Program-made: the position numbers and the translations under genes
Assembly (NCBI GenBank): GCA_043797445.1
Contig: JAZDPP010000092.1
Coordinates: 1-32,000, forward strand
From: Pseudomonadota bacterium
GTDB taxonomy: Bacteria > Desulfobacterota > Desulfobacteria > Desulfobacterales > JAFDDL01
Direction of reading: 5' to 3'
DNA length: 32,000 nucleotides
Shown: one piece after another, positions 2,301-21,264 of the stretch
Numbering within the stretch: the first letter of the stretch is position 1
Layout of the letters: every line of letters starts with the position of its first letter
The notes under the pieces: generated by a model
What the model was told of the DNA's origin: nothing
Database searches by the model: none
Seen by the model: the letters and a program-made list of their open reading frames with translations, nothing else

Positions 2301-2520
2301 CCGTATATTTTTAAAGCCAATCCTGTTAAAGCGCCCGTATTATGACAGACAGGTATGACTTTTTTCAGGCTTGGGAACCCTTTTTTCCCCGCTTCGGCAT
2401 CGGATTTAACGGCTTGCGACCGTTGTGGAAATAGGCGGTTTGGCGAGGAGGAGACGGCGACGATACATCCATTTGAATTTTTCAATTTCTGATGATTCGA
2501 TGTAATAGGAATAAGTGAAA

Positions 2521-2685
2521 ATGGAGTTGGATGATACACTGGTGAAGGCCGAACTCGATGATATTATGGCGCGAATTGATGGTATCATGAAAAAGGTGGA
2601 AAAATACGAGGGCAATTCAAAAGAAAAACCAGTAGAACCCAATGAGGAATCTGCTTCTCCTTTCAGGGAGGCCCATTTCGGCTGA
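2521..2685 (+). CDS. Small acidic hypothetical protein (54 aa)
   Basis: MELDDTLVKAELDDIMARIDGIMKKVEKYEGNSKEKPVEPNEESASPFREAHFG; AGGAA about 10 nt upstream. Below the ORF-track cutoff; supported only by composition and a possible RBS. Confidence 0.35.
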   Translation: MELDDTLVKAELDDIMARIDGIMKKVEKYEGNSKEKPVEPNEESASPFREAHFG

Positions 2686-2795
2686 AAATGATCCCGGTGT
2701 TAGGGTAACCCCCTTATCACTGGACGATTTCGATGATATTACGTTGAATTTCAATAGAATAGGGTGAGGATACAACACGGCTAAGAGGAGGCGCT

Positions 2796-3080
2796 ATGGC
2801 ACTGACCAAAAATGATCTTGTGGCATCCGTAAATGATTTGGGGTTTACGAAAAAAAAGTCAGTCGAAATTATCGAGGGGCTGATTGAAATCATTAAATCC
2901 ACTCTGGATAAGGGGGAGGATGTATTGGTTTCAGGTTTCGGCAAATTTTCCGTTAAACAAAAGCGGGCTCGAAGAGGCCGAAATCCGGCTACCGGCAGCG
3001 ATCTGACATTACGGGAGAGAAAGGTGATCACCTTTAAATGTTCCGGTAAACTTCGGGAAAAAATTAACGGCCCCGATTAA
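2796..3080 (+). CDS. ihfA: Integration host factor / HU-family DNA-binding protein, alpha-like
   Basis: 94 aa: LTKNDLVASVNDLGFTKKKSVEIIEGLIEIIKSTLDKGEDVLVSGFGKFSVKQKRARRGRNPATGSDLTLRERKVITFKCSGKLREKIN, classical HU/IHF fold with the RxGRNPxTG motif. Confidence 0.95.
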   Translation: MALTKNDLVASVNDLGFTKKKSVEIIEGLIEIIKSTLDKGEDVLVSGFGKFSVKQKRARRGRNPATGSDLTLRERKVITFKCSGKLREKINGPD

Positions 3081-3196
3081 CCTCTGCCCTCGGTGTTACA
3101 CATCATCCTCTTTTTGTGTAACAGCTCGATATATTGTCGAAGTGGAAGCAGCGTGCGCTTAAATAAAGAAAATAATTTGTTCTGCAATGCCGGTAT

Positions 3197-3712
3197 ATGA
3201 ACGATGACAACCGCGGCGTCACAGCGGGTAATTACCTCTTGAAGCCCGGATATATTTATATTGCGGACCCTCGGACGGTTTTGTCCACTGTGTTGGGCTC
3301 TTCCGTGTCGGTTTGCCTTTTTGACCGAAAGAGGAAAGTCGCCGGCATGAACCACTTCCGGCTTCCTTTCACCAAAGACCCGAAAAAGGCAACCGCCGAT
3401 TACGGTAATGTCGCGACGCTTACCCTCATACGAATGATGGTAATTGACGGATCTGACACAAAGCACCTTGAGGCGCAGGTGTTCGGCGGAGCCTATAATT
3501 CGGAGATTTCTTCAAAGGATATCGGCGGGGAGAATGCCGCGGCTGCAAAAAAAATGTTGCTGCGGGAGAAAATACGGATTGTCTCCGAAGATATCGGCGG
3601 GGAAAAGGGACGCAAAATTGTTTTTGACCCGGCAAAAAATGAGACAGCGGTCATTAAGGTGGATAAACTGCGCAAAGGCGATTGGTTTCCCTACGAGGAT
3701 GATCGGGTGTAA
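3197..3712 (+). CDS. cheD: CheD-family protein (chemoreceptor glutamine deamidase family), probable non-canonical active site
   Basis: 171 aa: YLLKPGYIYIADPRTVLSTVLGSSVSVCLFDRKRKVAGMNHFRLPF. CheD signature LGSCVxVCLxD...GMNHxxLP, but the catalytic Cys position is Ser. Confidence 0.85.
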   Translation: MNDDNRGVTAGNYLLKPGYIYIADPRTVLSTVLGSSVSVCLFDRKRKVAGMNHFRLPFTKDPKKATADYGNVATLTLIRMMVIDGSDTKHLEAQVFGGAYNSEISSKDIGGENAAAAKKMLLREKIRIVSEDIGGEKGRKIVFDPAKNETAVIKVDKLRKGDWFPYEDDRV

Positions 3713-6789: not shown

Positions 6790-7431
6790 TTACTCAAACT
6801 GCTTTTTAAAGACGGCAAATGCTTCTTTCAATGCGTCGATATCCTGTCGAAGGTCCTCGATATCCCGCGCCATCCGGTCCATGCGCATCTCCGCTTCGCT
6901 GTTGTCAACCGCTTCACCGGGGGCGGTATCGGCATGAACGACTTCCGGCTCTCCCGAAAGCAGGTGCCCGTAACGGGATTCCTTATGGCCGGGTAATCGG
7001 GCCATTCGCTTGATATAACCCCATTCCTGAAGATTGTTCAGGGTTTCGAGCAAGGCCTCGAGGCTTTCAAAGGCGTGCATTCGTCCCGTTCGTCCCCGGA
7101 TTTCTCCGGCGGTTTGGGGACCTCGAAGAAAAAGGACGCAGAGAACCGAGGACTCCCCGGCAACCAGATCACGCTCCCGGGTAAAGCGCTCCTCATATTT
7201 TATGACGCGCCCGACGCCGCTCTTCCGGACGAGCCCTTTTTTTTCCAGATCCTCGCAGGCACGGACCACGGTATTCTCGTCATGGGAGACCACCGGGTCC
7301 CGGTTCGATTTCTGGTTGCAGGCATTGGTCAGCGCATTTAAAGAGAGGGGATAATATTCGGGGGTCGAAAGCGCCTTTTCAATAAGGCTTCCCAGGACCC
7401 GGATTTCTGTTTCATTCAGCATCATTTCCAT
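6790..7431 (-). CDS. YceH family (DUF480) protein
   Basis: 213 aa: LNETEIRVLGSLIEKALSTPEYYPLSLNALTNACNQKSNRDPVV...LFLRGPQTAGEIRGRTGRMHAFESLEALLETLNNL, DUF480 pattern. Confidence 0.93.
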   Translation of the reverse strand: MEMMLNETEIRVLGSLIEKALSTPEYYPLSLNALTNACNQKSNRDPVVSHDENTVVRACEDLEKKGLVRKSGVGRVIKYEERFTRERDLVAGESSVLCVLFLRGPQTAGEIRGRTGRMHAFESLEALLETLNNLQEWGYIKRMARLPGHKESRYGHLLSGEPEVVHADTAPGEAVDNSEAEMRMDRMARDIEDLRQDIDALKEAFAVFKKQFE

Positions 7432-7765: not shown

Positions 7766-8407
7766 ATGGCGATTCTTTATACCCAGGCATTTGATATCAT
7801 TTCCGGGCAGGAGGCCGCGTACGAAAATTTTATCGCTGATTACATTCCCCGTTCGAACAAGCTGGGGCTTCAATCCGTTGGTGGATTCTACGTGGTTTGC
7901 GGTTTTGGGCCCCGGATTATCCATATATGCCGCGCCGAATCGATTGATGATTTATGCCGGATTTTGTCGACTAAGGAATTCAGGGACCTGCTTCTTGATA
8001 TCAAACGGTACGTCGTTAACTTCCGGAGCAAAATTCTTGAGCCGACCGGGCGGGTCAAACACCAGGAATACGAACTGAGAAAGGGGATCTGGAAGTTCAA
8101 CCAGTACTACGATCTGATCCCGGGCAAGAAAAAGGATTATGCCGATTTTATCATCAACGAGTACCTTCCGGTGATCGAGAAAATTGATTACGTGGAGGTG
8201 ACGGGCGGCTGGAACGTCCTTATCGGCGGTGTCAGCGAGATCATTGGGGAGTTTACTTTCAAATCGCCCGTGGATATCGCACGCATCCTTGAAAATCCGG
8301 ATTTCCAGCGCATTACCGACGTGCTTCGCACGTATGTGGTCAACTATGTGAGCCGCATTATGAGGGTCACCGAACGGTTCGAGGAATCCAGGTGGTACAG
8401 GCTTTGA
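7766..8407 (+). CDS. Tandemly duplicated small-domain protein (about 24 kDa, predicted dimeric alpha/beta-barrel-like), function unknown
   Basis: 213 aa with RBS AAGGAGGG. The two halves align (FDIISGQEAAYENFIADYIPRSNKLG.. with YDLIPGKKKDYADFIINEYLPVIEKID..; YVVNFRSKILEPTGR with YVVNYVSRIMRVTER). Confidence 0.75.
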   Translation: MAILYTQAFDIISGQEAAYENFIADYIPRSNKLGLQSVGGFYVVCGFGPRIIHICRAESIDDLCRILSTKEFRDLLLDIKRYVVNFRSKILEPTGRVKHQEYELRKGIWKFNQYYDLIPGKKKDYADFIINEYLPVIEKIDYVEVTGGWNVLIGGVSEIIGEFTFKSPVDIARILENPDFQRITDVLRTYVVNYVSRIMRVTERFEESRWYRL

Positions 8408-8470
8408 ATTCCGGTCCTCGCCGTATCACGGCCATTCACACCCCAACCCCTTAGACAAGGAGGAAAAGAC

Positions 8471-10315
8471 ATGGCAAAAAAGTTTTTAGACCCGCACGAT
8501 GTTCCCAAGATCCCCGGCACCGAGGGGTGGGAGAGAATGTACCCCTACTATTACCAGTTTAACACGGACGACCCGGCCCGGGCGGCGCATGAAAGCAACC
8601 AGCTATGGTATTATGACGGTCTTCATTACCCCGAGCCGCACCCGCCTTTTGACCTGATGTGGGACGAGGCCTGGTTCATGGCGCTGTCCCAGAACAATAC
8701 CCGAACCTTTCTCGTTCCCCCGGCCAAAGGCATCGAACACCGGATTGTAAACGGATATGTTTATATAACGCCCATCGGCATTGCCGATCCAAAGGAGATC
8801 GAGTCGCGGGTACCCGTTTTTTTAAAACGGGCCGGCTACTACTATGATAACTGGGATACCCTCTATCAGGAGTGGGAAGCCCGGATGAAAACACTCTTAA
8901 TCGAGCTTGAATCCGTCTCCTTTCACCCCCTTCCGGAGGTAGAGGATGAATCGGTCGTTTTTGAAAAGAGAGGGACCGGAAGCGGGTATCATCTGCTGAA
9001 CAAATATGACGATCTGATCGATATGGGGTTTAAGTGCTGGCAATATCATTTTGAGATGCTCAATCTCTGCTATGCCGCCTTTCTGACCTTTACCAATACG
9101 GTGGACCAGATTTTCCCGAACACCCCCGTAGCAACCGTGACAAAGATGGTTTCCGGGATCGATGCCATGATCATGAGGCCCAATGCCGAACTGATCAAAC
9201 TGGCGAAGCTGGCGATTGAAAAGAAGGTCGAAGACCTCATTCTGGAACCCCTGGACGCTTCGGCGCTCATGGAAGCGCTCGGCAAGACGCCCGCCGGCGT
9301 GGAGTGGCTTACCGCACTGGAGGCGTCACGCTATCCCTGGTTTCATATTTCAACCGGCACGGGGTGGTATCATCACCATTGCAGCTGGAACGACGATCTC
9401 AATATCCCCATGGAAAACATTCGGATGCACATCAAGGCGTTAAAAGCGGGGAAAGTGATCGATCGGCCCACCGAAAGATTGATCGAGGAGCGGGATAAAA
9501 TCGTTAAGGAATACCGGGCCATGATTCAGACGGATGAAGACCGCGAGGCGTTCGACGAGACCCTTTCCATTGCCCGGCGGGTATTTCCCTTCGCGGAAAA
9601 CCATATCTTCTATGTCGAGAACTGGTTCCACAGTGTTTTTTGGAACAAAATAAGGCAGGTCGCCGATATTCTTCACGATATCGGTTTTATTAAAGACCGG
9701 GAAGATATCTGGTACCTGAGACGGGGGGAAATCCGGGACGCCCTGTGGGATCACGTGACCAGCTGGGCCACCGGAATTGAACCGCGAGGGCCGTTCCATT
9801 GGCCAAAGGAAATCGAATGGCGGAAAGGGGTTATCGAGAAATTCAGGCAGTGGACGCCGCCACCGGCTCTGGGAACTCCTCCCGACGTGGTCACCGAACC
9901 GTTTACGATCATGTTGTGGGGGGTCACGACGGATGTGTTAAAGAAATGGCTGGAGAGCACCGAAGCGGCCGCGGGAATGGATGACACCGATGAGTTGTTC
10001 GGAGCGCCCGGTTCCTCGGGTCTTGTGGAAGGAAAGGCGCGGGTTATCCGGACCGTTGCGGAGTTGAGCGATTTGCAGGAGGGGGAGATTTTAGTCGCCA
10101 CCACGACCTCACCCAGTTGGGCGCCCGCCTTTTCGAAAATCAAGGGTGCTGTCACGGATGTCGGCGGATCCATGTGCCATGCGGCGATCATCTGCCGTGA
10201 ATATGCCTTGCCGACGGTTGTGGGAACCGGGAGAGCCACTTCATTTATCAAAACGGGTGATTTGATTCGTCTGGATGGGGATCAGGGTACCATCAAGATT
10301 CTGAAACGGGCCTGA
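8471..10315 (+). CDS. ppsA: Phenylphosphate synthase subunit A-like protein with a C-terminal PEP-utilising phosphohistidine (swivel) domain
   Basis: 614 aa, RBS AAGGAGG. The C-terminal GEILVATTTSPSWAPAFSKIKGAVTDVGGSMCHAAIICREYALPTVVGTGRATSFIKTGDLIRLDGDQGTIKIL carries the catalytic-His motif at His570. No ATP-grasp domain on the same chain. Size matches the known 70 kDa subunit. This is phenylphosphate synthase ppsA, not the gluconeogenic pps gene. Confidence 0.75.
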   Translation: MAKKFLDPHDVPKIPGTEGWERMYPYYYQFNTDDPARAAHESNQLWYYDGLHYPEPHPPFDLMWDEAWFMALSQNNTRTFLVPPAKGIEHRIVNGYVYITPIGIADPKEIESRVPVFLKRAGYYYDNWDTLYQEWEARMKTLLIELESVSFHPLPEVEDESVVFEKRGTGSGYHLLNKYDDLIDMGFKCWQYHFEMLNLCYAAFLTFTNTVDQIFPNTPVATVTKMVSGIDAMIMRPNAELIKLAKLAIEKKVEDLILEPLDASALMEALGKTPAGVEWLTALEASRYPWFHISTGTGWYHHHCSWNDDLNIPMENIRMHIKALKAGKVIDRPTERLIEERDKIVKEYRAMIQTDEDREAFDETLSIARRVFPFAENHIFYVENWFHSVFWNKIRQVADILHDIGFIKDREDIWYLRRGEIRDALWDHVTSWATGIEPRGPFHWPKEIEWRKGVIEKFRQWTPPPALGTPPDVVTEPFTIMLWGVTTDVLKKWLESTEAAAGMDDTDELFGAPGSSGLVEGKARVIRTVAELSDLQEGEILVATTTSPSWAPAFSKIKGAVTDVGGSMCHAAIICREYALPTVVGTGRATSFIKTGDLIRLDGDQGTIKILKRA

Positions 10316-10376
10316 TTGGTTTGTCGGGGCGGTTCGCGAACCGCCCCGACAGGTTGCATTGAGGGCTGAAGGATTC

Positions 10377-11333
10377 TCATCGGCCGAGGCGCGTGGAATT
10401 GTTATCGCCCAAAATCAGGGAATGAATTCCCTTGATGGGTCTTTTTCCCCCCGTTATCTGCTCCAGGGTTTTAAGAAAGGCCCGGGCGGCGGGGGACAGC
10501 GGTTGGTTTTTTAAATAGGCGATGCTGACATCGATCGTGACGGTCTCTCCGATGATCGGACGGGTGGCGAGTCTCTCCTGTTTGATTTCCGCGTCCACCG
10601 CTCCTCTGACCAGGAAGGAAATTCCCTCGCCCCGTTCGACGAATTGTTTGATAAAATCGGCGTTGGCCGTTTCCATCAGAATGTTGGGAGTGCAGCCATG
10701 GCGTGCGTAGAGTTCGTTGACCACCCGTCTCGTTTTTGAGCCGGTCTCTTTCAGGATGACCGGTTCATTGGAAATTTCTTCGAAAGTGACGCTTTTTTTG
10801 CGGACCAAAGGATGTCCGGGCGGAAGCAGCAGAATCAATTCCTCCTCGCTGAAAGGGATAAATTCCACATCCGGTGCATCGACTACCTTGGCGATAATTG
10901 CCACCTCGTTTTTCAGCTCCGGAAGGCTTTTGATCATATCCGTGGAGCTGCCCTCGTCCAGATGTATTTCGATATGGCGATACTTCGCGTGAAAATCCCG
11001 CATCAGAAACGGCATGATGTAACGGGCGTAGGTTTTGCTGGTGCCGAGGCGCAGGACGCCGCGCTTGAGGCCTCGTAGATCCGCGATGAGGGTCTCGACT
11101 TCCTTTTCGTGCTCAAAGATCGGCCGGACACTTTCGTAGAGCGCTTTTCCCTCGTCGGTCATGCAGATGCTTCGGCCACGCTTTTTAAATAACTCAAGTT
11201 CACAGTATTCCTCGAAAGCCTTTATTTGCGCCGTGACGGCCGGCTGGGTGATAAAGAGCTCTTTTGCGGCGGCAGTAAAGCTCAGGTTCTTTGCCACATA
11301 ATAGAATGCTCTGATCTGATTTAAATTGAGCAT
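10377..11333 (-). CDS. LysR-family transcriptional regulator
   Basis: MLNLNQIRAFYYVAKNLSFTAAAKELFITQPAVTAQIKAFEEYCELELFKKRGRSICMTDEG (LysR HTH) followed by an effector-binding domain. The ORF opens upstream to 11519 but the family start fits ATG at 11333. Confidence 0.95.
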   Translation of the reverse strand: MLNLNQIRAFYYVAKNLSFTAAAKELFITQPAVTAQIKAFEEYCELELFKKRGRSICMTDEGKALYESVRPIFEHEKEVETLIADLRGLKRGVLRLGTSKTYARYIMPFLMRDFHAKYRHIEIHLDEGSSTDMIKSLPELKNEVAIIAKVVDAPDVEFIPFSEEELILLLPPGHPLVRKKSVTFEEISNEPVILKETGSKTRRVVNELYARHGCTPNILMETANADFIKQFVERGEGISFLVRGAVDAEIKQERLATRPIIGETVTIDVSIAYLKNQPLSPAARAFLKTLEQITGGKRPIKGIHSLILGDNNSTRLGR

Positions 11334-11664
11334 GTGACGCTTCTCCATCGGGCTTGGGGCATTGGGCTGCCTTCCTTTTGGAAGTAAAGAGGAAACGGTT
11401 GGAACGACCGGTGTGCCGGACGTGCTCAACCCATAAGTTCTCCTGATAAATAGCATAAGGATAATGAAATTGACATCATATTTTATTTCAGTCATCCTGC
11501 AACTTAAAAACGTGGCCATATGAAGGCCGCTTCCGTTGCCATATCACGTTTTACCCAACTGCTCGTGTTTTTAAAATAAAATCATACCCCCTCATTCAAG
11601 GGGCACCGATTAACGGGGCGAATTTTTCGCTTCACTTATAAACCCTGTAAAGGAGGAAAACACC

Positions 11665-13071
11665 ATGAAGGACATGAGAGATTATCTGTCAATTTGTGAA
11701 GAAAAAGGGTTATTAAAAAGAATTACGGCGGAAGTTGACCCGTACCTGGAATTGTCCCATATCGCAAAATTAAACGAGGAAGCCCAGGGGCCGGCCCTCT
11801 TGTTCGAAAATGTGAAGGGCCATAATACACCTGTTCTTACCAGTGCCAGTACAACGGTTCAACGTCTGGCCATTATCATGGGTGAGCCTGAAAATTCAAG
11901 CCTTTTTGATCTCTATGCAGCATGGGCGGAAAAGGCAAAAAGTCCGATCAAACCAAAATATGTGGATAGAAGTCAGGCGCCCTGCAAGCAAAACATCATG
12001 ATGGGGGATGATATAGATCTGACTATGTTTCCGGTTCCCCATTATTATCCTCTGGATGGCGGCAAATATTATGGGACCGCACACTTCATCATTACCAAAG
12101 ATCCTGATTCCGGATGGGTTAATCTGGGAACCTATCGAAGCCAGCTGCTGGGTAAAGACAAACTCGGCACCCAGTTCATCAAAGGCAAACATGCCGATAT
12201 CATGCTCAAAAAATACCAGGCACTGAAACAACCCATGCCCGTTGCCTCCATTTGCGGATGCGACCCCATCTTATTTTTAGTGGGAGCCGCCAGGATTGGC
12301 GCCTTTACCAGTGAATTGGAGGTGGCCGGCGCTTTCCGGGGTGAACCCATAGAAGTGGTCAAAGGAGAAGTGGTGGATCTGCCCATTCCCGCCCATGCGG
12401 AAATCGTGGTGGAAGGATTTGTGGATGCGGATAAGTTTATGGAAGAAGGCCCCTTTGGTGAATATACCGGGTATTACTCCGGTGTGGGGACGGATCCCAG
12501 AAACTTTATCGATGTGAAATGTATCACCTATAGAAACAATCCGATATTCTGGGGAACAACCGTTGGTCGTGCGGTAACCGATTCGCATATGACCCTGGCG
12601 TTGTCCTATGGCGCCACCCTCTGGCAGCAACTTAATGAAATGAGGATACCGGGTTTGAAAAATTGTTATTGCCCCCCCGAAGCTGCCGGCAGATTCCTTG
12701 CGATTATCTCCGTAAAACAGATGTTCCCGGGGCATGTCGACCAGGTGCTCACCGCGGCTATTTCAACGGAAATGGGCGCCTATGGGCTTAAAACCGTCAT
12801 TGTGGTGGATGACGATATTGATTCATGGGACATCCCAAGGGTCATGTATGCCATGAGTTTCAGATTCCAGCCAAACCGTTGCCAGATCATCAAGAGAGGC
12901 CGGTCTACCCCGCTTGATCCTTCTCTGCCCATCGATGCCAGATGGATTACCGGAAGACTTCTCATGGATTGTACGATTCCCTATGAGTGGGAAGAAAAAC
13001 CCATTCAGATCAAACTGGATGATGCCATGGTTAAACATGTGAAAGAGAGATGGGCGGAGCTTGGGCTCTAA
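11665..13071 (+). CDS. UbiD-family (prenylated-FMN-dependent) decarboxylase/carboxylase
   Basis: 468 aa, RBS AAAGGAGG. MRDYLSICEEKGLLKRITAEVDPYLELSHI, MEEGPFGEYTGYYS, QMFPGHVDQVL, VVVDDDIDSWDIPRVMYAM and the C-terminal KRGRSTPLDPS...DARWITGRLLMDCT are UbiD-family patterns. Confidence 0.95.
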   Translation: MKDMRDYLSICEEKGLLKRITAEVDPYLELSHIAKLNEEAQGPALLFENVKGHNTPVLTSASTTVQRLAIIMGEPENSSLFDLYAAWAEKAKSPIKPKYVDRSQAPCKQNIMMGDDIDLTMFPVPHYYPLDGGKYYGTAHFIITKDPDSGWVNLGTYRSQLLGKDKLGTQFIKGKHADIMLKKYQALKQPMPVASICGCDPILFLVGAARIGAFTSELEVAGAFRGEPIEVVKGEVVDLPIPAHAEIVVEGFVDADKFMEEGPFGEYTGYYSGVGTDPRNFIDVKCITYRNNPIFWGTTVGRAVTDSHMTLALSYGATLWQQLNEMRIPGLKNCYCPPEAAGRFLAIISVKQMFPGHVDQVLTAAISTEMGAYGLKTVIVVDDDIDSWDIPRVMYAMSFRFQPNRCQIIKRGRSTPLDPSLPIDARWITGRLLMDCTIPYEWEEKPIQIKLDDAMVKHVKERWAELGL

Positions 13072-13242
13072 AAAGGCTTGATCCGTCATTCCATTACGGT
13101 CTTGCGGGCGAGAATTGTTCCGACATTCCTCCCGCAAGGCTTATGGAAGTCTTCATGCATGCAAAACACTTGCTGCCTAAAGGGAATTTGAAAACCTAAA
13201 ACCATCACACGAGTGTGGGTTGCATCAACCGGAGGGGCAAAA

Positions 13243-14307
13243 ATGGTAGAAAAAGAAAAACGAATGACGATTTGGTACGATGAACTCAAAGGTGAGGAGT
13301 ACCATCTTGTCGGTAAGAAAAATGCCAACCTGGGAGAGATGATAAAGGCGGGGATTCGCGTGAGCCCCGGGTTTGCCCTGACCGTTCATGCCAACGAGGT
13401 GTTTGTTTCCGAGACGGGCATTAAACAGAAACTCGAAGACTATCTTAACGACCTAGGTCCGGTGAGTTACGAGAAGAGTCAGCAGGCGAGCCAATACGCC
13501 ATCGATCTGATTGAAAACGCCGAGATACCGCCGGTGATCTGCGATGAAGTTTTTCGGGAATACGAGAAGCTTTGCAGTCTGTCCGGTGTCGAAAACGTGC
13601 CGGTTGCGGTCCGATCCAGCGGAGCCGTTTCCATGCCCGGTCAGATGGAGACTTACCTGAATATTCGCGGGAAAAACGATTTACTTCTCTATATCAAAAA
13701 GACCTGGTCCAGCGCCTATTCCGTCGAAGCCATTACCTATCGGATGAACAAGGGAATGGGGTTTATGCTCAATATCGGCGTGGGGATTCCCAAGATGGTC
13801 AATTCCCGGCTTTCAGGCGTTATTTTTACCTTAAACCCCCTAAACGGGGACCGGTCCAAGATATCTGTTGATGTGAGTTACGGTCTGGGCGAGGCCGTTG
13901 TGAGCGGTATGGTGACACCTGACAATTACCTGGTGGAAAAGGTAACGCTGCAGGTGATCAGCTCGGTGATGGGGGGGAAGGAATCCATGTGTGTCTACCA
14001 GGACGGCGAGAGCAATATCAAGATCGTGGATGTGGCCCAAGAGGACCGCGTGAGATATTGCATTACGCCGGCGGAGCTGACGGAACTTTGCCGTATCGCC
14101 AAGTCCATCGATGTTTACTATGGAAAACCCTATGATATTGAATTCGCGATCGATTGGGATCTGCCGTTCCCCGAGAATGTGATTATTCTCCAGGTCAGGC
14201 CCGAATCGGTCTGGTCCAAGAAGGAGACCCAGCCAAGGACCGCCAAAAAGAAAGATGTTATGGACAGGATTATCAGTCAATTGGTTACGGGCGTCAGAGT
14301 GAAGTAG
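13243..14307 (+). CDS. ppsB: PEP synthase-like ATP/PPDK_N-domain protein, phenylphosphate synthase subunit B-like
   Basis: 354 aa from ATG 13243 with RBS GGAGGGG. VGKKNANLGEMIKAGIRVSPGFALTV, VPVAVRSSGAVSMPGQMETYLN, GLGEAVVSGMVTPDNYLV, YDIEFAIDWDLPFPENVIILQVRPESV; the ATP-binding half only, no phosphohistidine domain. Confidence 0.8.
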   Translation: MVEKEKRMTIWYDELKGEEYHLVGKKNANLGEMIKAGIRVSPGFALTVHANEVFVSETGIKQKLEDYLNDLGPVSYEKSQQASQYAIDLIENAEIPPVICDEVFREYEKLCSLSGVENVPVAVRSSGAVSMPGQMETYLNIRGKNDLLLYIKKTWSSAYSVEAITYRMNKGMGFMLNIGVGIPKMVNSRLSGVIFTLNPLNGDRSKISVDVSYGLGEAVVSGMVTPDNYLVEKVTLQVISSVMGGKESMCVYQDGESNIKIVDVAQEDRVRYCITPAELTELCRIAKSIDVYYGKPYDIEFAIDWDLPFPENVIILQVRPESVWSKKETQPRTAKKKDVMDRIISQLVTGVRVK

Positions 14308-14326
14308 TAACTATAAGGAGGAACCA

Positions 14327-15979
14327 TTGAAACCGATTCGCTATAAAGAAAAAATGATAAACGAGTTTGTAGAAGACGGCCACTGGACGCAGGAGCTGTT
14401 TTACGATTTCTGGGACCGAAACGCCCGGGAGTTTGGAGACCGGGAAGCCCTTGTCGATTCAAAGCACCGGATCACCTGGGCCGAAGCGAAAAAGCTGGTG
14501 GATGCCATGGCCATTACGTGGGTGGAAATGGGAATCGCCAAGGATTCGCGCATCATCATTCAATCGCCTAACAGCGTGTTCGGATTTCTCGCCCGGATTG
14601 CCTGCGAGCGCGCCGGTTGCATTTCCCTGACCGTCTATCCGTATTTGCGTCAGTTGGAACTGGAGTATATGCTGGAGAAGACCGAAGCCACAGCCGTGGT
14701 GATTCCCAGTGTTTATCGGGGATTTGACTATCTGGACATGTACCGGGGCCTGCAGGAGCGGTTTACCCATCTAAAATACTTCTTCCTCTTTGACGATCAG
14801 GTGCCGGCCGGCGCGCCGAAGGGCGCCTACTCGCTGACAACGACGGTTCAGGAGCGCGCGAAAAAGCCGGTGGATGCGTCGGTTCTGGACGCCCGACGGC
14901 TTAGCGCCTGGGGTGATGTGGCGCTATTGACGACCACCTCCGGCACGACCGGTATTCCCAAGCTCGTTGAATATCCCGCGGCTCCCCGAGTCTGTACCTC
15001 CAAGGGCAGAGTCGATATCTGGAAACTCACCAAGGACGATATTGCCGTGGCCATCGCGCCCCATGCCGGCGGTGCCGCGGGGACGTTGACCTATTTTGCA
15101 GCACCTCTTGCGGGCGCCAAAACCGTCATGCTGGAGGAATTCGAACCGGAAGCGGCTCTCGCTCTGATGGAAAAGGAAAAGGCCACGGCCATCGGCGTGG
15201 TGCCCACCCACCTGATTCGAATGCTCGAGTGCGATATCTCCAAATATGATTTGAGTTCTCTTCGCTTTATTCGCTCCGCCGGTGGATATCTTCCTCCGCA
15301 AGTTGCGGAAGAGGCGGAAAATGCGTTCGGGGCCTCCATCACGAGTGATCTGGGTACCCAGGATATGGGATCCGTGTCCGGATGCCGGGTGGAAGACAGC
15401 AAGGATTTACGTCGCCGGACCGTCGGGCGCATGCTGCCGGGCAATAAGGTTCGTCTTCTGGATAAAGACACTAAAAAAGAGGTACCCGAAGGAGAGCCCG
15501 GTGTGCTCTACTTCAGAGGACCCCATGCCCCGGCCGGCTATTTCCGGGATGAGAAATTGACCGCGACGGTATTCGACGATGAGGGGTGGACCACGACGAG
15601 TGATATCGTGAAATTCGATCAGGGGTGTCTCTGGATTCTGGGTCGTGCGAAAGACATGATCATTCGGGGCGGACAGAACCTCTATCCGGCGGAAATTGAG
15701 GGATTATTGAACGGCCATCCCAAAATTGCCTCCGTGGCCGTCGTGGGGTATCCGGATCGCCTGATGGGGGAAAGAGCTTGCGCCTATGTCATTCCCAAAA
15801 AGGGTCAGACGTTTATCTTTCAGGAGATGGTCGATTTTCTTAAATCCAAGAAACTGGCCATGTTCAAAATTCCCGAGCGTCTGGAGATCGTCTCGGAGTT
15901 TCCGGCTGTCGGGGATTCCGGAAAGGTCAACAAGGAAGTATTGAAGAAAGATATCGCTGAAAAAGTAAAGGCGGGGTGA
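14327..15979 (+). CDS. AMP-dependent acyl/aryl-CoA ligase (dihydroxybenzoate-AMP ligase/CoA ligase-like)
   Basis: 550 aa from TTG start with RBS AAGGAGG. LLTTTSGTTGIPKLVEY (P-loop), TSDIVKFDQGCLWILGRAKDMIIRGGQNLYPAEIE and GDSGKVNKEVLKKDI are ANL-superfamily motifs. Confidence 0.93.
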   Translation: MKPIRYKEKMINEFVEDGHWTQELFYDFWDRNAREFGDREALVDSKHRITWAEAKKLVDAMAITWVEMGIAKDSRIIIQSPNSVFGFLARIACERAGCISLTVYPYLRQLELEYMLEKTEATAVVIPSVYRGFDYLDMYRGLQERFTHLKYFFLFDDQVPAGAPKGAYSLTTTVQERAKKPVDASVLDARRLSAWGDVALLTTTSGTTGIPKLVEYPAAPRVCTSKGRVDIWKLTKDDIAVAIAPHAGGAAGTLTYFAAPLAGAKTVMLEEFEPEAALALMEKEKATAIGVVPTHLIRMLECDISKYDLSSLRFIRSAGGYLPPQVAEEAENAFGASITSDLGTQDMGSVSGCRVEDSKDLRRRTVGRMLPGNKVRLLDKDTKKEVPEGEPGVLYFRGPHAPAGYFRDEKLTATVFDDEGWTTTSDIVKFDQGCLWILGRAKDMIIRGGQNLYPAEIEGLLNGHPKIASVAVVGYPDRLMGERACAYVIPKKGQTFIFQEMVDFLKSKKLAMFKIPERLEIVSEFPAVGDSGKVNKEVLKKDIAEKVKAG

Positions 15980-15983
15980 TCGA

Positions 15984-17195
15984 ATGCCGAAAACCGTACT
16001 GATTCTCTCGACGCTGGACACAAAGAGTGAAGAAACTCTCTATTTGCGGCAAAAAATAGAGTCAATCGGTCTCGGAAACTTAGTGATGGATCTCTCCATG
16101 CGTGGCGACAGCGCCTGGCCGGCGGATATTACACCGGCACAGGTTGCCGTTGCCGGCGGCAGTTCACTGGAAGAGATTCGAAGCTCCCGGGATCGATCTA
16201 AAAATACCCGTATTACCACCGCCGGCGCTTCGAAAATCGCCGGTGAGCTATTCAGACAGGGTCGAATCGCCGGTGTGCTCGCCATCGGCGGCTCGACCGG
16301 CTCTCTCATGGCAACCGACGTCATGCGCACACTCCCCTTCGGGGTGCCCAAGCTCATGATCTCCTCCACCGCCGCCTTGCCGGGACTTGCCACCCGGTAT
16401 ATCGGAACCGGAGACATCCTGCTCTTTCACTCCGTCATTGAAGTGGCCGGGGTCACGGATCTATTGAAAAACGTGGTGGACAGAGCGGTCCACGCCATGG
16501 CCGGTATGCTTTCGGAGGGAATTACCCCGCCGTTCAGCCGCGCTGGAAAGGCCATAGCCATTACCATGCTCAGCCCCTGCGAACAATGCGCCAGTGCAGT
16601 TCGGGACGCCCTGGAAAAGGACGGGTATCAGGTGATCGGCTATTCGGCGGCGGGTGTCGGTGACCGGGCCATGGAGGAGATGATATCCCAGGGCCTCTTC
16701 CACGGGGTCATCGATCTTGCGCCCGGCGGGGTGGGGGAGCATCTGTTTGGCTATATGCGGGATGCGGGTCCCGACCGGATGGAGTCCGCGGGCCGCAAGG
16801 GCATTGCGCAGGTGATCTCCACCTGCAGCGTAAACCACATGACGCCGTCCAAGAACAAGTATAAGCCGGATTTTTACGAGCGCAGAAAATACGACCTTGA
16901 CAAGTTCCGCTCCTGGGTGCGCTTATCGCCCGAAGAGTTAAAGACCGTGGCAGGGGTGTTTGCGCAGAAGCTGAACGGCGCCAGAGGACCCGTAAAGGTA
17001 TTGATTCCCTCCAGGGGGTGGTCATCGGTGGATATTCCCGGAAACCCAACCTATGATCCCGACGAGGACCGCATCTTTGTGAAGGAGCTTCGGTTATTGC
17101 TTGACTCAAAAATAGAATTGGTTGAGATTGAGGCGAACATGGAAGAGCCCGTGTTTGCCGAGGCGGTGGTTCGGGTTGCAAGGGAAATTTTTTGA
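15984..17195 (+). CDS. Tm-1-like ATP-binding domain protein (UPF0261)
   Basis: 403 aa: VLILSTLDTKSEETLYLRQKIESIG, GGSTGSLMATDVMRTLPFGVPKLMISSTA, YIGTGDILLFHSVIEVAG, GVIDLAPGGVGEHLFG, IPSRGWSSVDIPG. Starts 4 bp after the ligase stop. Confidence 0.9.
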   Translation: MPKTVLILSTLDTKSEETLYLRQKIESIGLGNLVMDLSMRGDSAWPADITPAQVAVAGGSSLEEIRSSRDRSKNTRITTAGASKIAGELFRQGRIAGVLAIGGSTGSLMATDVMRTLPFGVPKLMISSTAALPGLATRYIGTGDILLFHSVIEVAGVTDLLKNVVDRAVHAMAGMLSEGITPPFSRAGKAIAITMLSPCEQCASAVRDALEKDGYQVIGYSAAGVGDRAMEEMISQGLFHGVIDLAPGGVGEHLFGYMRDAGPDRMESAGRKGIAQVISTCSVNHMTPSKNKYKPDFYERRKYDLDKFRSWVRLSPEELKTVAGVFAQKLNGARGPVKVLIPSRGWSSVDIPGNPTYDPDEDRIFVKELRLLLDSKIELVEIEANMEEPVFAEAVVRVAREIF

Positions 17196-17322
17196 CATCC
17201 TGGCATTGATCATTTTTTCTAAAAACCGGAACACGGCGTTGCAGGGGCGAAAATAAGTCTCCATTACGGGTTGCAGCCGGTGCGGGATGTTTTCCATTTA
17301 TTACTATAATGAAAGGTGAATT

Positions 17323-17904
17323 ATGCCCAAACGAATCGTCGTCGGACTCTCAGGGGCCAGCGGGATTATCTATGGCGTCCGCATTCTGGAGCTTCTCAGG
17401 GATTCAGATATCGAAACGCATTTGATTATCTCAAACTCCGGGAAGGTAAATATCCGTATCGAGACTGATTTTACGCCGGAAGAAGTTGCCGCCATGGCAA
17501 ATTATACCTACGATGACAATGACATGGCGGCGGCTGTCTCCAGCGGTTCATTTTTAACCGAGGGAATGATCGTCGCCCCCTGCACCATCAAATCGCTTTC
17601 CGGAATTGCCAATTCCTATACCACCAACCTGCTGGTGAGGGCCGCGGATGTAACGCTTAAGGAAAAACGGAAGCTGGTTCTGGTTGTCAGGGAAACGCCG
17701 CTCCACAAGGGGCATTTGAGGCTGATGACCATGGCGGCGGACATGGGGGCACATATTCTGCCCCCGGTCCCCTCCTTTTATCACAAGCCGAAAACCATTC
17801 AGGACATCATCGATCAGACCATCGGAAAGGTCTTCGATTATATGGGAATCCAGCATGCGTTATTTGCACGATGGGGCAAAGAAGAACGCGACGAGGTTTT
17901 ATGA
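17323..17904 (+). CDS. ubiX: UbiX/Pad1-family flavin prenyltransferase
   Basis: 193 aa: RIVVGLSGASGIIYGVRILELL, IVAPCTIKSLSGIANSYTTNLLVRAADVTLKEKRKLVLVVRETPLHKGHLRLM...GAHILPPVPSFYHKPKTI. Confidence 0.96.
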   Translation: MPKRIVVGLSGASGIIYGVRILELLRDSDIETHLIISNSGKVNIRIETDFTPEEVAAMANYTYDDNDMAAAVSSGSFLTEGMIVAPCTIKSLSGIANSYTTNLLVRAADVTLKEKRKLVLVVRETPLHKGHLRLMTMAADMGAHILPPVPSFYHKPKTIQDIIDQTIGKVFDYMGIQHALFARWGKEERDEVL

Positions 17905-18039
17905 CCCATGAGAGCGCAGAAAAAAAATTGGGTTCGGGCTGAATTCGAAGAGCGTCAACAGGTAGATCTTTATGGGGATGGGGAACCGTAACTTTGCCGG
18001 GCATTTCCGATTGCTTGAATTTCGGTTCCGGTCATTCAT

Positions 18040-19179
18040 TCATCTTTTCATATTCTTCTTTACTGTCTTAATGAAGCGTCCGAATGCCCTGTCCTTTTTA
18101 CGTTTGTCCAAGTACGACATCTCATAGTGCTCTGACTCTTTCCTGAGTTTCAAATAACTATTATAGCGCTCCTCACTCAACTCGCCGTTTGTAATAGCAG
18201 TAAGAACTGCGCAGTCTGATTCTTGAGTATGGCTGCAATCGACATAGCGACAAGCCATGGAAAGCTCGATAATATCTTCAAACCCTTTGCTTACCCCTTC
18301 CCTGGCGCCCAGAAGGCCTAATTCTCTCATTCCAGGTGTATCAATGAACATAACGCCGTTATCAAGAACAATGAGTTGCCGACGCGCTGTTGTGTGTGTG
18401 CCTTCTCCTGTTCCACTAACCGCTTTGGTATCAAGATCATCCTGTCCAATCAGATGATTGATCAGTGTCGTCTTGCCGACTCCGGATGACCCAAGCAGGC
18501 AATATGTTTGACCCGGTATTAATACCGGATGAAATTCGTCAAATCCGGAGCCAGTTATGTTACTGAGCGCAATAACCCTGGTCGTGATGCCAGCCTGTCT
18601 AATAATCGCAAGCTTCTGTTGCAGCTCATCGTGGGAGATCAAGTCCGTTTTGGCAAGAATGATAATCGGCTCAACATGTCCGTCAGCCGCCATTACTAAA
18701 TACCGATTCAGTCTAGGTAGATTAAAGTCGAAGTGACATGACTGGACAATGAAAGCGATATCAATGTTGGCTGCAATCATCTGGTAGTCCACTTCTATGC
18801 CAGCACGCTTGCGGCGTAAAAACGTCTTTCGTGGAAAGACCCCATGGATGAGTGCCGAAGCGCCATCATTGTGATACTGCACGGTGACCCAATCGCCGAC
18901 GCATGGCAGCTCGACCGATGACTCGACATGGAAATAGAATTTTCCCGCAAGTTCAGCAGGAATCTCTCTGAGTTCATTCCTGATAATGTAGGAATTGCGA
19001 TCAACTGCCGACACGCGTGCAATGCCTTGATTCTCGTGGCGGATGTCATCGACATGTGCGTCAAACCAGTGGTCAAACCCTATATCACTCAATTTCATCA
19101 TAAGAGGTAAGCGCATCGATCTCGGATTGATATTCTCTATTTTGTGAACGAAGAGCATAAGACCATATTGGCGTATCAA
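18040..19179 (-). CDS. rsgA: Ribosome small-subunit-dependent GTPase RsgA
   Basis: Contains GDWVTV, ILAKTDLI, GSSGVGKTTLINHLIG, GEGTHTTARRQLI, DTPGMRELGL and the C-terminal zinc motif CRYVDCSHTQESDCAV. The true start may be ATG at 19098. Confidence 0.95.
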   Translation of the reverse strand: MIRQYGLMLFVHKIENINPRSMRLPLMMKLSDIGFDHWFDAHVDDIRHENQGIARVSAVDRNSYIIRNELREIPAELAGKFYFHVESSVELPCVGDWVTVQYHNDGASALIHGVFPRKTFLRRKRAGIEVDYQMIAANIDIAFIVQSCHFDFNLPRLNRYLVMAADGHVEPIIILAKTDLISHDELQQKLAIIRQAGITTRVIALSNITGSGFDEFHPVLIPGQTYCLLGSSGVGKTTLINHLIGQDDLDTKAVSGTGEGTHTTARRQLIVLDNGVMFIDTPGMRELGLLGAREGVSKGFEDIIELSMACRYVDCSHTQESDCAVLTAITNGELSEERYNSYLKLRKESEHYEMSYLDKRKKDRAFGRFIKTVKKNMKR

Positions 19180-19316
19180 CCAGGACTTTCAACGATTTCT
19201 TCCCCTTTTATAATCATAATAATTGATCATCGATCGCTAAATTGGTGGCCATTTTGCACTTCCTTTTTTACACACCATATTGCACATTGAATTGTGTGTC
19301 AAATAAGTGCGGCGAG

Positions 19317-19373
19317 GCTAACGTTGGAATTCTGCGGCTGTCGTAGGCGGTCCGCTTGAACGCCGGGTAGCCG
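19317..19373 (-). repeat. 57-bp imperfect hairpin, degenerate attC-like (hypothesis)
   Basis: The plus strand begins GGCTAACGTTGG and ends GAACGCCGGGTAGCC (outer arms GGCTA/TAGCC, inner GCGG/CCGC). Lies 8 bp beyond the stop codon of the upstream toxin gene. Confidence 0.3.
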
Positions 19374-19381
19374 CGGCTCTT

Positions 19382-19693
19382 TTAAATGTCGAGTGCAAAG
19401 CGAATTGCCCGTGCAACGTCAAACTTCTTTGTCCGGGGCAAGGATGTGATCAACGGTCCGATTTTGCTCTTGGAAACAGTCTGCAAATGGTCACAATTGA
19501 CAGCACAGTCCTGAGGCATACCATCAGCCGTCGAGAGGAACACCTCGGACGGTATATTACGTACGGTAGTCGTAATGGGTGCGATGGTAACCTCCCCCAG
19601 ATATTCCAACACGGAATCCCGTGTCAGGATAAGGACAGGCCGTTGTTTATCTGGCAACAAAAATTTATACCAGCGTATTTCGCCATGCTTCAT
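19382..19693 (-). CDS. mazF: MazF/PemK-like type II toxin
   Basis: 103 aa: GEIRWYKFLLPDKQRPVLILTRDSVLEYLGEVTIAPITTTVRNIPSEVFLS...GMPQDCAVNCDHLQTVSKSKIG. Confidence 0.93.
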   Translation of the reverse strand: MKHGEIRWYKFLLPDKQRPVLILTRDSVLEYLGEVTIAPITTTVRNIPSEVFLSTADGMPQDCAVNCDHLQTVSKSKIGPLITSLPRTKKFDVARAIRFALDI

Positions 19694-19923
19694 TCGTCAC
19701 CCCACGCCTGCTCAATTTCCCAAACCGAAAACTCATCAGTTGCCACCGGGTTTTGTTCGTACCCCATACGGTGCTTGCGTTCTTGTTGCTCAAGTTTATA
19801 ACGAACAAGGGCGTCTTGCAGCGCCTTTCTTGTGAATGCGGAACGGCTTGTATGGAGTTCCTTTGAAACACGATCGACCGCGTTCACAAGATTATCATCC
19901 AGGGTCATCTGAATGGTTCTCAT
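19690..19923 (-). CDS. Ribbon-helix-helix antitoxin paired with the downstream MazF-like toxin
   Basis: 77 aa: MRTIQMTLDDNLVNAVDRVSKELHTSRSAFTRKALQDAL; 4-bp overlap with the toxin gene. Confidence 0.9.
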   Translation of the reverse strand: MRTIQMTLDDNLVNAVDRVSKELHTSRSAFTRKALQDALVRYKLEQQERKHRMGYEQNPVATDEFSVWEIEQAWGDE

Positions 19924-20523
19924 CTCGCACCTCCATAATATGGATTTTGATAGCTATGATATTCCACATTGAAAGGCCTGTCAAATGAATTGGGTGCGGC
20001 TCTTTTACGGTGCCCCAGGTTAAGAGGTCAGAGAGACCAAGACAGGCTCACAGTCCCGAAATCAGGGTTCTCTCGCTCGGATTCGAATGTTTTTGTAAAG
20101 TAGGTCAAAGCATAGCTCAAAGTGAAACGACCATGTCGCACGCAGAAGCCGAGCGAGGCCATACCGATGAAAGGGTTGATTGTCTCTGCGGTCATGCAAT
20201 TTTGCAATTCCATCATCATCAAACTGGTATTCTGGTACATCCATGAGCACCTCCCATCTATTTGGGTTATAGGTTACATCATGAGTGTATCAACAGTTCT
20301 AACGTTTGTCTATCGCATTGATTTAATATCGCATATTTACAGTCGAGCAAAATGTGTGCCAGAAAAAACCTAAGTTGGACCACTATATCGGGAAAGATAT
20401 TGCCGGCCAGAAACATATTCAGGAGATAATGAAAACCCATCGGCCCGTTGTCAGCGATGTCTTTACGGCGGTTCAGGGAAATACGGCGGTAGCACTGCAT
20501 GTGCCGGTGTTTAAGGGAAACGG

Positions 20524-20880
20524 CTACTGCGCGTCGAAAACAATTTTTAAAGCTTCGTCAATTTTTGCCATGATCTCGTCTTCCAGTTCACCTCGCACTT
20601 TGACTAAACGAGCGCGGTGATCAATAGGACGAGTCTGCAGGCAATCCGCCACCATTTTTTTGGTTAACCCGTTATGCGACGATGGGACAATTTCCGCATT
20701 AGTGATGATGCTGGCTTTTTTTTCACTCCATGTCGTTAACGGTACCACTTGGATGACTGGAACACGCGCATTATACGTGTTGTTCGTAACTATCACGCAG
20801 GGTCGAATTTTCCCGGTTTCCGAACCCTTGGCAGGGTCAAGATTCACGTCGATGACCATCCCCCGGCTCAGCTTGCTCAT
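20524..20880 (-). CDS. mazF: MazF/PemK-like type II toxin
   Basis: MSKLSRGMVIDVNLDPAKGSETGKIRPCVIVTNNTYNARVPVIQVVPLTTW...NGLTKKMVADCLQTRPIDHRARL; the MSKL start at 20880 overlaps the antitoxin stop. Confidence 0.93.
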   Translation of the reverse strand: MSKLSRGMVIDVNLDPAKGSETGKIRPCVIVTNNTYNARVPVIQVVPLTTWSEKKASIITNAEIVPSSHNGLTKKMVADCLQTRPIDHRARLVKVRGELEDEIMAKIDEALKIVFDAQ

Positions 20881-21110
20881 GTTGGCCACTCTGACAGCGC
20901 CGCATCCGTCCATTCTCTCGTTTCATCATCTTCTTCATAAACATCGGCGTACAAAGCAGCCGATTCGCGCAAGCGCTGCTGGGTTAATTCTGTAAACAAG
21001 CGATCGATGGCGGTACGCACCACGTCACTTTTATCCTTAAATCCATACCGATTGCATTGTTCAATAAATTGAATATGCGATTCTTTGAGGCTAAATTTGG
21101 CTTGAATCAT
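20877..21110 (-). CDS. Antitoxin-like (RHH/CopG-type) protein paired with MazF-like toxin
   Basis: 77 aa: MIQAKFSLKESHIQFIEQCNRYGFKDKSDVVRTAIDRLFTELTQQ; immediately upstream of and overlapping the toxin gene. Confidence 0.88.
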   Translation of the reverse strand: MIQAKFSLKESHIQFIEQCNRYGFKDKSDVVRTAIDRLFTELTQQRLRESAALYADVYEEDDETREWTDAALSEWPT

Positions 21111-21204
21111 GAGGACCTCCTTAAATAGTCTAATATGAATACCCTAAATATTGCCCTAAGTATAGGTCCTAAACGATGGGGAGTCAAACCATTTTCTAAG
21201 GGCA

Positions 21205-21264
21205 GGCCCAACGTGGAGCGCAACCGGCGCTGTCAGGCGTCTGGTTCGCGCCGTGGTTGGGGCC
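21205..21264 (-). repeat. 60-bp imperfect hairpin, attC-like (hypothesis)
   Basis: Plus strand GGCCCAACGTGGAGCGCAACCGGCGC...GCGCCGTGGTTGGGGCC. Minus strand ends GTTGGGC, matching the GTTRRRY R' consensus, while the opposite R'' box deviates by one base. Overlaps the 3' end of the acyl-CoA dehydrogenase gene. Confidence 0.25.

Follow-up and report, generated by a model that had tools for sequence, protein, structure and literature searches.

Among the described systems for anaerobic phenol degradation, the phe cluster of Desulfatiglans anilini (H567DRAFT_02049-02059; Xie and Muller, 2018, PMC6114531; Xie et al., 2020, PMC7500099) is the closest to the locus considered here. It encodes the phenylphosphate synthase subunits Pps-beta and Pps-alpha (02051/02052) and Hcr-like proteins, which resemble 4-hydroxybenzoyl-CoA reductase (02053-02055) (PMC6114531), as well as UbiX (02056, 193 amino acids), an "Uncharacterized protein, UPF0261 family" (02057, 403 amino acids), a "2,3-dihydroxybenzoate-AMP ligase" (02058, 552 amino acids), and the carboxylase subunit Ppc-beta (02059, 468 amino acids) (PMC7500099, Table S1). 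We analysed a 32-kb stretch of contig JAZDPP010000092.1 (the window), in which positions 7766-17904 hold a cluster of the same type, with genes for a two-part PpsA/PpsB-like dikinase, UbiD, an acyl ligase, a UPF0261 protein, UbiX, a LysR-type regulator, and a 213-amino-acid protein for which we coined the label N213. The cluster probably serves, under the control of LysR, the catabolism of phenol or a closely similar phenolic, which it would activate without oxygen, and it is built like the D. anilini phe cluster. The first-pass annotation of this DNA had proposed an uncharacterised pathway variant, which is too strong, as the cluster type has been in print as a phenol cluster since 2018; the window is a further example of it, and the new interest lies in the conserved UPF0261 and N213 proteins.

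The D. anilini equivalents of the genes discussed here respond to phenol, the proteins of the UbiD-ligase-UPF0261-UbiX block showing a 20- to 50-fold higher abundance on this substrate. In replicate 1, mass spectrometry areas on 4-aminobenzoate, aniline, benzoate, and phenol were, in this order, 1.5e9, 8.8e8, 8.8e8, and 1.8e10 for 02059; 8.5e8, 8.0e8, 6.6e8, and 1.26e10 for 02058 (19-fold up on phenol); 0, 5.0e7, 5.3e7, and 2.5e9 for 02057 (~48-fold up on phenol); and 0, 0, 0, and 3.9e7 for 02056 (PMC7500099, Table S1). The authors called the function of the 02058 ligase unknown and never mentioned 02057. A second UPF0261/ligase pair of the same organism, 03869/03870 of the ani cluster, is abundant on aniline and 4-aminobenzoate only (PMC7500099). 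Formation of phenylphosphate has been shown in D. anilini extracts, and the PpsAB-type proteins are phenol-induced (PMC6114531). The order of the UbiD-ligase-UPF0261-UbiX block is the same in the window, and the lengths of the products are 468/552/403/193 amino acids in D. anilini and 468/550/403/193 in the window.

Gene content of the cluster

According to the open reading frame (ORF) listing and profile searches (Pfam, NCBIfam/TIGRFAM), the cluster comprises seven plus-strand genes and one minus-strand gene, encoding LysR, between PpsA and UbiD; the gaps are short between N213 and PpsA (63 nt), PpsB and the ligase (19 nt), and the ligase and UPF0261 (4 nt). The first-pass annotation had named a split phosphoenolpyruvate (PEP)-synthase-like pair, a UbiD-family decarboxylase, an AMP-binding coenzyme A (CoA) ligase, a UbiX-like protein, and a Tm-1-like protein. 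All these ORFs are present at the coordinates given, with family matches far above chance. Its gene list was right but short, as N213 (7766-8407) and the minus-strand LysR gene have to be added, and it lacked the link from the Tm-1-like protein to UPF0261, i.e., the family of the aromatic kinase MarK (PMC12624787). For comparison, related loci were collected by a genome scan with PpsA (30 loci) and a metagenome scan with UPF0261 alone (80 loci), and their neighbour content was determined by tblastn and ORF clustering.

The PpsA-like protein (8471-10315, plus strand, 614 amino acids) would contribute the substrate-binding region and the phosphohistidine swivel domain of the dikinase, in agreement with the split proposed earlier: its sole Pfam domain is the C-terminal PEP-utilizers mobile domain (PF00391, residues 536-606, E 3.8e-24). 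It scores 875 bits with the NCBIfam model NF006152 (cut-off 723); the Aromatoleum buckelii homologue, with 1026 bits, belongs to the same equivalog and is 53% identical to the window PpsA, the identity to the protein of the related locus L001 being 83%. Residues 562-570, TDVGGSMCH, fit the phosphohistidine motif T/SxxGGxxxH defined for PpsA, CreH, and HpeH (PMC12167813), and the predicted catalytic residue is His570. The PpsB-like ATP-grasp protein (13213/13243-14307, plus strand; 354 amino acids from ATG 13243 or 364 from GTG 13213) has the PPDK_N domain (PF01326, E 1.2e-86) and is 72-77% identical to its counterparts in L001 and L026, where PpsB comes immediately after PpsA; in the window the gene is displaced behind UbiD, and likewise on the contig P0243. 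The two proteins thus have the separate ~70-kDa swivel and ~40-kDa ATP-grasp parts of a two-component dikinase. No CBS PpsC-like gene was found in the window by tblastn.

The A. buckelii locus itself (L023, 1289-12375) contains Hcr-like genes, a sigma-54 regulator, and, beside the gene for the PpsA-like protein, a PpcD-like one (259 bits with TIGR02726, cut-off 282). Neither PpsB nor PpcB is detectable there within 10 kb, in a sequence free of masked bases; L023 is an imperfect reference locus because PpsB is not detectable within this distance.

The UbiD-family protein (11665-13071, plus strand, 468 amino acids) has all three UbiD domains (PF20695, PF01977, PF20696). The motifs NLGTYR (153-158) and EEGPFGE (260-266), which we take, after Fdc1, to hold the catalytic Arg and Glu...Glu, are intact and align with PDB 7pda. 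With TIGR02724 (phenyl_P_beta) the protein scores 475.7 bits, marginally above the cut-off of 468.95, and it fails the alpha-subunit model (214 vs. 565). Canonical PpcB proteins reach 637 (L003, a locus that also encodes PpcA, PpcC or PpcD), 589 (L004), and 522 bits (L030), and the clade of the window protein spans 476-492 bits (e.g., 489 in L014 and 492 in L001); the window UbiD and the L003 PpcB are ~47% identical. By these scores, the window UbiD is PpcB-like and belongs to a clade that is sister to the canonical beta subunits of phenylphosphate carboxylase. The alpha (TIGR02723), gamma (PF09662), and delta phosphatase (TIGR02726) genes of PpcABCD are not in the 32-kb window. Such genes do occur in L002 and L003, and a delta-like gene in L009 as well; those missing here could be at another site of the same genome, as is the case for D. 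anilini. Two loci, L015 (16099-19005) and L065, have two tandem window-type UbiD copies (~78% identity each) before the ligase, which recalls the two UbiD-like subunits needed in the D. anilini aniline system.

UbiX (17323-17904, plus strand, 193 amino acids), encoded 4.2 kb downstream of UbiD in the same orientation, is a flavin prenyltransferase by both family models (NF004685, 262 bits vs. cut-off 188; TIGR00421, 248 vs. 109) and presumably makes the prenylated flavin mononucleotide (prFMN) cofactor for UbiD. The DhbE-like acyl ligase (14327-15979, plus strand, 550 amino acids), with AMP-binding and AMP-binding_C domains, has as its nearest solved structures 2,3-dihydroxybenzoate-AMP and salicylate-AMP ligases (245, 232, and 227 bits). 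Residues His234-Asn235-Tyr236 of DhbE, which bind the 2-hydroxyl, align with Gly-Gly-Ala in the window ligase. We presume that it is a 4-hydroxybenzoate-CoA ligase.

The LysR-type regulator (10377-11350, minus strand; HTH_1 and LysR_substrate domains) is encoded by an ORF that extends to 11519, with the helix-turn-helix domain starting only at ORF residue 66. The ORF call is probably too far upstream, the true start being ATG 11350 or 11335. In most related loci, LysR (44-58% identity) stands next to or divergent from PpsA/UbiD. The 314-bp region between LysR and UbiD (11351-11664), delimited by sequence inspection, includes a strong ribosome-binding site for UbiD, AGGAGG, 8 nt before the ATG, and presumably holds the divergent promoter/operator. 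Promoter-like hexamers occur on both strands (11550-11577, plus; 11651-11622, minus), in a sigma-70 scan that does not rise above shuffled controls (13 vs. 9.4±2.7); nor does the terminator scan show an excess (14 vs. 12.8±3.8). No inverted repeat of at least 10 nt was found in this intergenic region, and Rfam and tRNA scans gave no matches.

UPF0261, N213, and the conserved gene order

The gene set recurs in more than 100 related loci from Syntrophobacteraceae, Desulfobacterales, and many metagenomes, in the form LysR | PpsA-PpsB-UbiD-ligase-UPF0261-(HD, LpdD chaperone, CBS)-UbiX. In the set selected by UPF0261, where only loci with enough flanking DNA were counted, the ligase gene lies immediately upstream of UPF0261 in 38/45 cases, UbiD lies upstream in 30/35, PpsA within 9 kb upstream in 22/23, and UbiX downstream in 29/38. 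The exact order of the window, N213-PpsA-LysR(<)-UbiD-PpsB-Lig-UPF0261-UbiX, is found at 90% identity on an independent 123-kb contig (P0243). Three genes for an Hcr-like molybdenum enzyme follow UbiX in L031, L102, and L107, and in the closest relative, L001, Hcr-like genes separate UbiX from N213; L086/L087 and L047 show only the Hcr FAD subunit, at cut contig ends.

The UbiD-ligase-UPF0261-UbiX block travels with three PpsAB lineages. The first is ~42% identical to the window PpsA, with NF006153 as the best model; the second is ~56% identical, occurs in Syntrophobacteraceae, and is accompanied by a CBS PpsC-like gene; the third, to which the window belongs, is 64-83% identical and always has N213 directly upstream. 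Further loci (L089, L090, L097, L013 at 3-3381, and L100 at 17658-21205) encode a very divergent PpsA (24-27% identity), like the Pas-alpha of the D. anilini aniline system. In L089, L090, and L097, a single ligase is flanked by three different UPF0261 paralogues, and an N213 homologue directly follows PpsB in the Pas-like loci L013 and L100. These neighbourhoods suggest a part for N213 and UPF0261 proteins in aniline-type systems, too.

The UPF0261 protein (15984-17195, plus strand, 403 amino acids; Tm-1/MarK-family) has both family domains (PF06792, E 7e-50; PF23189, E 1.8e-62) and aligns with MarK (PDB 9MPY) over residues 4-402 (E 1.4e-53). MarK, which phosphorylates a phenolic hydroxyl in an ATP-dependent, ADP-forming reaction, is the only UPF0261 member with demonstrated activity (PMC12624787). 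The TLDTK motif with Lys14, equivalent to K16 of MarK and K20 of Tm-1, is kept in all members of the window-type UPF0261 clade. The substrate residues of MarK, Gly195/Thr196, His219, His304, and His348, are replaced by Ser197/Pro198, Ser221, Leu, and Val, respectively, and the replacements are the same across the clade.

We propose that UPF0261 may be a MarK-like phosphotransferase that cooperates with the carboxylase and the ligase, its substrate being the aryl or aryl-phosphate intermediate. Action on an aromatic intermediate is suggested by the substrate-specific paralogues in the phe and ani clusters and by the tight coupling to the ligase. A role in the supply of the prFMN cofactor is less likely; it is kept in consideration because in some relatives UPF0261 adjoins HD, LpdD, UbiX, and flavin reductase genes. 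Such a run, UPF0261 followed by genes for an HD protein, an LpdD-type prFMN chaperone, UbiX, a second UPF0261, and a flavin reductase, is seen in L112/L113 (11212-14583) and L070-L072, and it looks like a cofactor-supply sub-cluster; the second UPF0261 paralogue of the L112/L113 type is ~33% identical to the first.

N213 (7766-8407, plus strand) matches no Pfam family above threshold, the best hit being NIPSNAP with 21.1 bits at a cut-off of 22.3. Its family has 331 homologues, and all names given among the best 120 are "hypothetical protein." The AlphaFold2 model (predicted local distance difference test, pLDDT, 90; predicted template modelling score, pTM, 0.84) shows two tandem ferredoxin-like halves of ABM/Dabb type, that is, a beta-alpha-beta-beta-alpha-alpha-beta unit repeated twice, and the best Foldseek matches in PDB are tandem ABM-fold "putative monooxygenases," e.g., 3f44 (E 1.6e-8, template modelling score 0.61, 8% identity). 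We rejected a NIPSNAP identity for N213: the Pfam score falls short of the threshold, the fold matches only generic tandem ABM/Dabb proteins at 8-14% identity, and no function can be transferred.

N213 lies directly upstream of PpsA in L001, L003, L004, L005, L008, L025, L026, and in the P0243 context. Among the related loci, nine carry N213 and 13 a CBS PpsC-like gene, and none carries both. Homologues of N213 are also found in metagenome-assembled genomes of Syntrophorhabdus, a genus that includes known phenol degraders. In Thauera, PpsC is a stimulatory third subunit, a CBS-pair protein of ~24 kDa (PMC6114531). Since N213 invariably adjoins PpsA of this lineage and never shares a locus with the CBS PpsC-like gene, we propose N213 as a candidate third, non-CBS dikinase subunit that may take the stimulatory role of PpsC.

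Anaerobic phenol degradation by sulfate-reducing, iron-reducing, and syntrophic bacteria has two gaps, the clusters in which PpcB is the only carboxylase subunit and the ATP cost, the ~four ATP equivalents for the activation of phenol being unexplained in low-energy anaerobes (PMC6114531). A joint reading, which we advance as a speculation and rate as rather doubtful, is that UPF0261 might be the MarK-family missing partner of the PpcB-only carboxylase in strict anaerobes, with N213 as the non-CBS third subunit of phenylphosphate synthase. If so, UPF0261 could phosphorylate phenol for one ATP instead of two, or it could work in reverse, phosphorylating ADP at the expense of the aryl phosphate and handing the phenolate to the carboxylase. 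Either mode, if true, would explain how sulfate reducers and syntrophs afford the activation of phenol. The locus and its more than 100 relatives identify UPF0261 and N213 as conserved parts of the system and thereby provide a short list of testable candidates.

Proposed pathway and competing explanations

In the pathway that we consider probable, the ATP-grasp protein PpsB would pyrophosphorylate His570 of the PpsA swivel domain, with loss of the gamma-phosphate, and the remaining phosphoryl group would be passed to the phenolic hydroxyl, yielding an aryl phosphate, AMP, and Pi. The single PpcB-like UbiD with UbiX-made prFMN would then carboxylate the ring para to the oxygen and release phosphate, the product being 4-hydroxybenzoate or an analogue, and the DhbE-like ligase would convert it to the CoA thioester, pulling the carboxylation forward. 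Finally, an Hcr-type molybdenum enzyme, with genes at another place in this genome, would reductively dehydroxylate the thioester to benzoyl-CoA. The logic of phosphorylation, carboxylation, and CoA activation was already put forward in the first-pass annotation and is now supported by the family assignments, the recurrence in >100 loci, the neighbouring Hcr-like genes of relatives, and the D. anilini proteomics. The substrate, which that annotation had left open, is most likely phenol, with other phenolics possible as far as the sequences go, and the product of the cluster would be 4-hydroxybenzoyl-CoA. In favour of phenol are its inducing effect on the D. anilini equivalents, the presence of Hcr genes in related loci, and the equivalog that PpsA shares with the Aromatoleum protein.

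Several observations weigh against this assignment. The block of the window was matched to D. anilini 02059-02056 by synteny, annotation, and similar lengths, not by sequence alignment, and phenylphosphate carboxylase activity has never been demonstrated in PpcB-only systems (Geobacter, D. anilini) (PMC6114531). PpcA, PpcC, PpcD, a CBS PpsC, an LpdD chaperone, and Hcr are all absent from the 32-kb window. The UbiD clade could have shifted its substrate or mechanism, since it passes the PpcB model by 7 bits only and is 47% identical to a canonical PpcB. The 53% identity of PpsA to the Aromatoleum homologue does not fix the substrate, because the characterised members PpsA, CreH, and HpeH are only ~45% identical to one another (PMC12167813). 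The substrate pocket of UPF0261 is, by the aligned residues, unlike that of MarK. Lastly, a 223-kb contig (P0252) carries UbiD(468)-ligase(541)-UPF0261(403)-UbiX(204), with a UPF0261 80% identical to that of the window, and no PpsA/PpsB in the 10 kb upstream, which are occupied by housekeeping genes; it is the sole clear stand-alone block.

It is unlikely, though worth serious consideration, that the same chemistry is applied to another nucleophile (catechol, hydroquinone, cresol, or aniline), leading to protocatechuate, gentisate, methyl-hydroxybenzoate, or 4-aminobenzoate, respectively. The marginal score of the UbiD sister clade with the PpcB model would fit such a shift, as would the breadth of the dikinase family, which covers phenol, cresol, hydroxyacetophenones, and aniline at ~28-45% identity, and the paralogous sets for phenol and aniline in D. 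anilini; some organisms, among them the one that harbours L001, have two or three Lig/UPF0261 sets that are paralogous. However, phenol induces the D. anilini block, which neither aniline nor 4-aminobenzoate does, and the window PpsA falls in the Aromatoleum equivalog (875 and 1026 bits vs. 723), far from the Pas-like lineage (24-27%). The nearest solved relatives of the ligase, DhbE and salicylate-AMP ligase, activate ortho-hydroxybenzoates, but the hint to an ortho-hydroxy substrate fails and was ruled out, as the His-Asn-Tyr of DhbE is not kept. A para-hydroxy (or para-amino) benzoyl-CoA is in keeping with the Hcr-like genes of related loci.

A further explanation, which we hold to be very unlikely, treats UbiD-ligase-UPF0261-UbiX as a self-contained module, in which UPF0261 is the working kinase or the block decarboxylates an aromatic acid or CoA ester, with PpsAB and N213 as an accessory that helps at low substrate concentrations or acts in another step. 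It would account for the stand-alone block on the 223-kb contig and for the association of the four-gene block with three different PpsAB lineages; MarK shows that UPF0261 alone can phosphorylate phenolics, converting ATP to ADP (PMC12624787), and UbiD enzymes are reversible, the phthaloyl-CoA decarboxylases acting on CoA esters. On the other hand, PpsA was found within 9 kb in 22/23 informative loci, the match of the window UbiD to phthaloyl-CoA decarboxylase is distant (63 bits), and the phenol-binding histidines of MarK are not kept; in D. anilini, the PpsAB-type proteins are induced by phenol, and phenylphosphate is formed in extracts (PMC6114531). The idea that UbiD/UbiX is a quinone-biosynthesis (ubiquinone/menaquinone) decarboxylase set near unrelated PEP-synthase-like genes has next to no probability and was ruled out on model scores: the pair is the classical ubiquinone decarboxylase pair, and the general UbiD model TIGR00148 gives 346 bits, but the menaquinone decarboxylase model gives 268 (cut-off 496) and the 4-hydroxy-3-polyprenylbenzoate decarboxylase model 241 (cut-off 788), and quinone biosynthesis would have no use for the conserved company of PpsAB, an aryl-acid ligase, and Hcr genes.

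Surroundings of the cluster and comparison with known systems

At the left edge of the window, a DDE transposase is cut, leaving its C-terminal 124 amino acids (2-376, plus strand; PF07592, E 3e-43). Downstream of the cluster, a gene-poor stretch contains three toxin-type genes on the minus strand (19382-19693, 20524-20913, and 23020-23663), two of MazF/PemK type (E 1e-14 and 5e-24) and the third encoding a PIN-domain (VapC-like) protein with an upstream ribbon-helix-helix antitoxin gene. The GC content is 0.47-0.54 over 1-21 kb vs. 0.58-0.60 over 24-32 kb. The transposase end, the toxin-antitoxin genes, and the lower GC content hint that the catabolic cluster lies in a mobile or recently acquired region.

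Of the other genes, those at 24033-31872 (minus strand) form a complete RND efflux system with a 1099-amino-acid AcrB-type pump, a 464-amino-acid HlyD/CusB-type adaptor, and two outer-membrane factors (513 and 467 amino acids). A ChrB-like gene without an adjacent chromate transporter (467-1447, minus strand), an orphan CheD-like gene (3197-3712, plus strand), and a DUF480/YceH gene (6790-7431, minus strand) appear to be unrelated to the aromatic cluster. The RsgA ORF (18040-19179, minus strand) has ~90 extra N-terminal residues, its start being probably too far upstream.

We compared the locus with several known systems. The benzene "Magic" cluster of ORM2 was dismissed as a counterpart, as it encodes flavoprotein/Hdr-like proteins and a CoA transferase and has no UbiD or Pps. 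The aerobic systems HpeHI, AcvAB, and CreHI share with the window the split into a swivel and substrate protein (~70 kDa) and an ATP-grasp protein (~40 kDa), and the T/SxxGGxxxH motif; the Cys before the His in the window PpsA is found in HpeH as well. They feed biotin-dependent carboxylases or oxidative side-chain chemistry, and none is linked to UbiD/UbiX, N213, or UPF0261. Similarly, MarK from Novosphingobium aromaticivorans (9MPY) and the window UPF0261 have in common the two-domain fold family, the N-terminal D-T-K motif of the ATP site with the Lys that activates MarK, and the context of aromatic catabolism, but the partner of MarK is a biotin-type carboxylase of aerobic acetovanillone catabolism, whereas the window UPF0261 is found beside UbiD/PpsAB.

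The PpsABC-PpcABCD system of Thauera and Aromatoleum resembles the window in the two-component dikinase with a catalytic His, the UbiD-family carboxylase with its UbiX cofactor, and the subsequent CoA ligation. Unlike that system, the window has N213 and no CBS PpsC, an additional UPF0261, a LysR regulator rather than one of the sigma-54 type, and a single UbiD subunit without alpha, gamma (PF09662), and delta (KdsC-like phosphatase) subunits.

The D. anilini phe cluster is also the nearest in organization: like the window, it has a split PpsA/PpsB pair and one Ppc-beta UbiD, lacks PpcC, and has PpcA/PpcD outside the cluster. The two differ in the dikinase lineage, since the window PpsA belongs to that of NF006152 (with Aromatoleum) and the PpsA of D. 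anilini-like loci (e.g., L112) to NF006153. The phe cluster moreover holds Hcr genes, a PaaK-type ligase, and a CheY-like response regulator, which are absent from the 32 kb of the window; in place of these extra genes of D. anilini, the window has LysR and N213.

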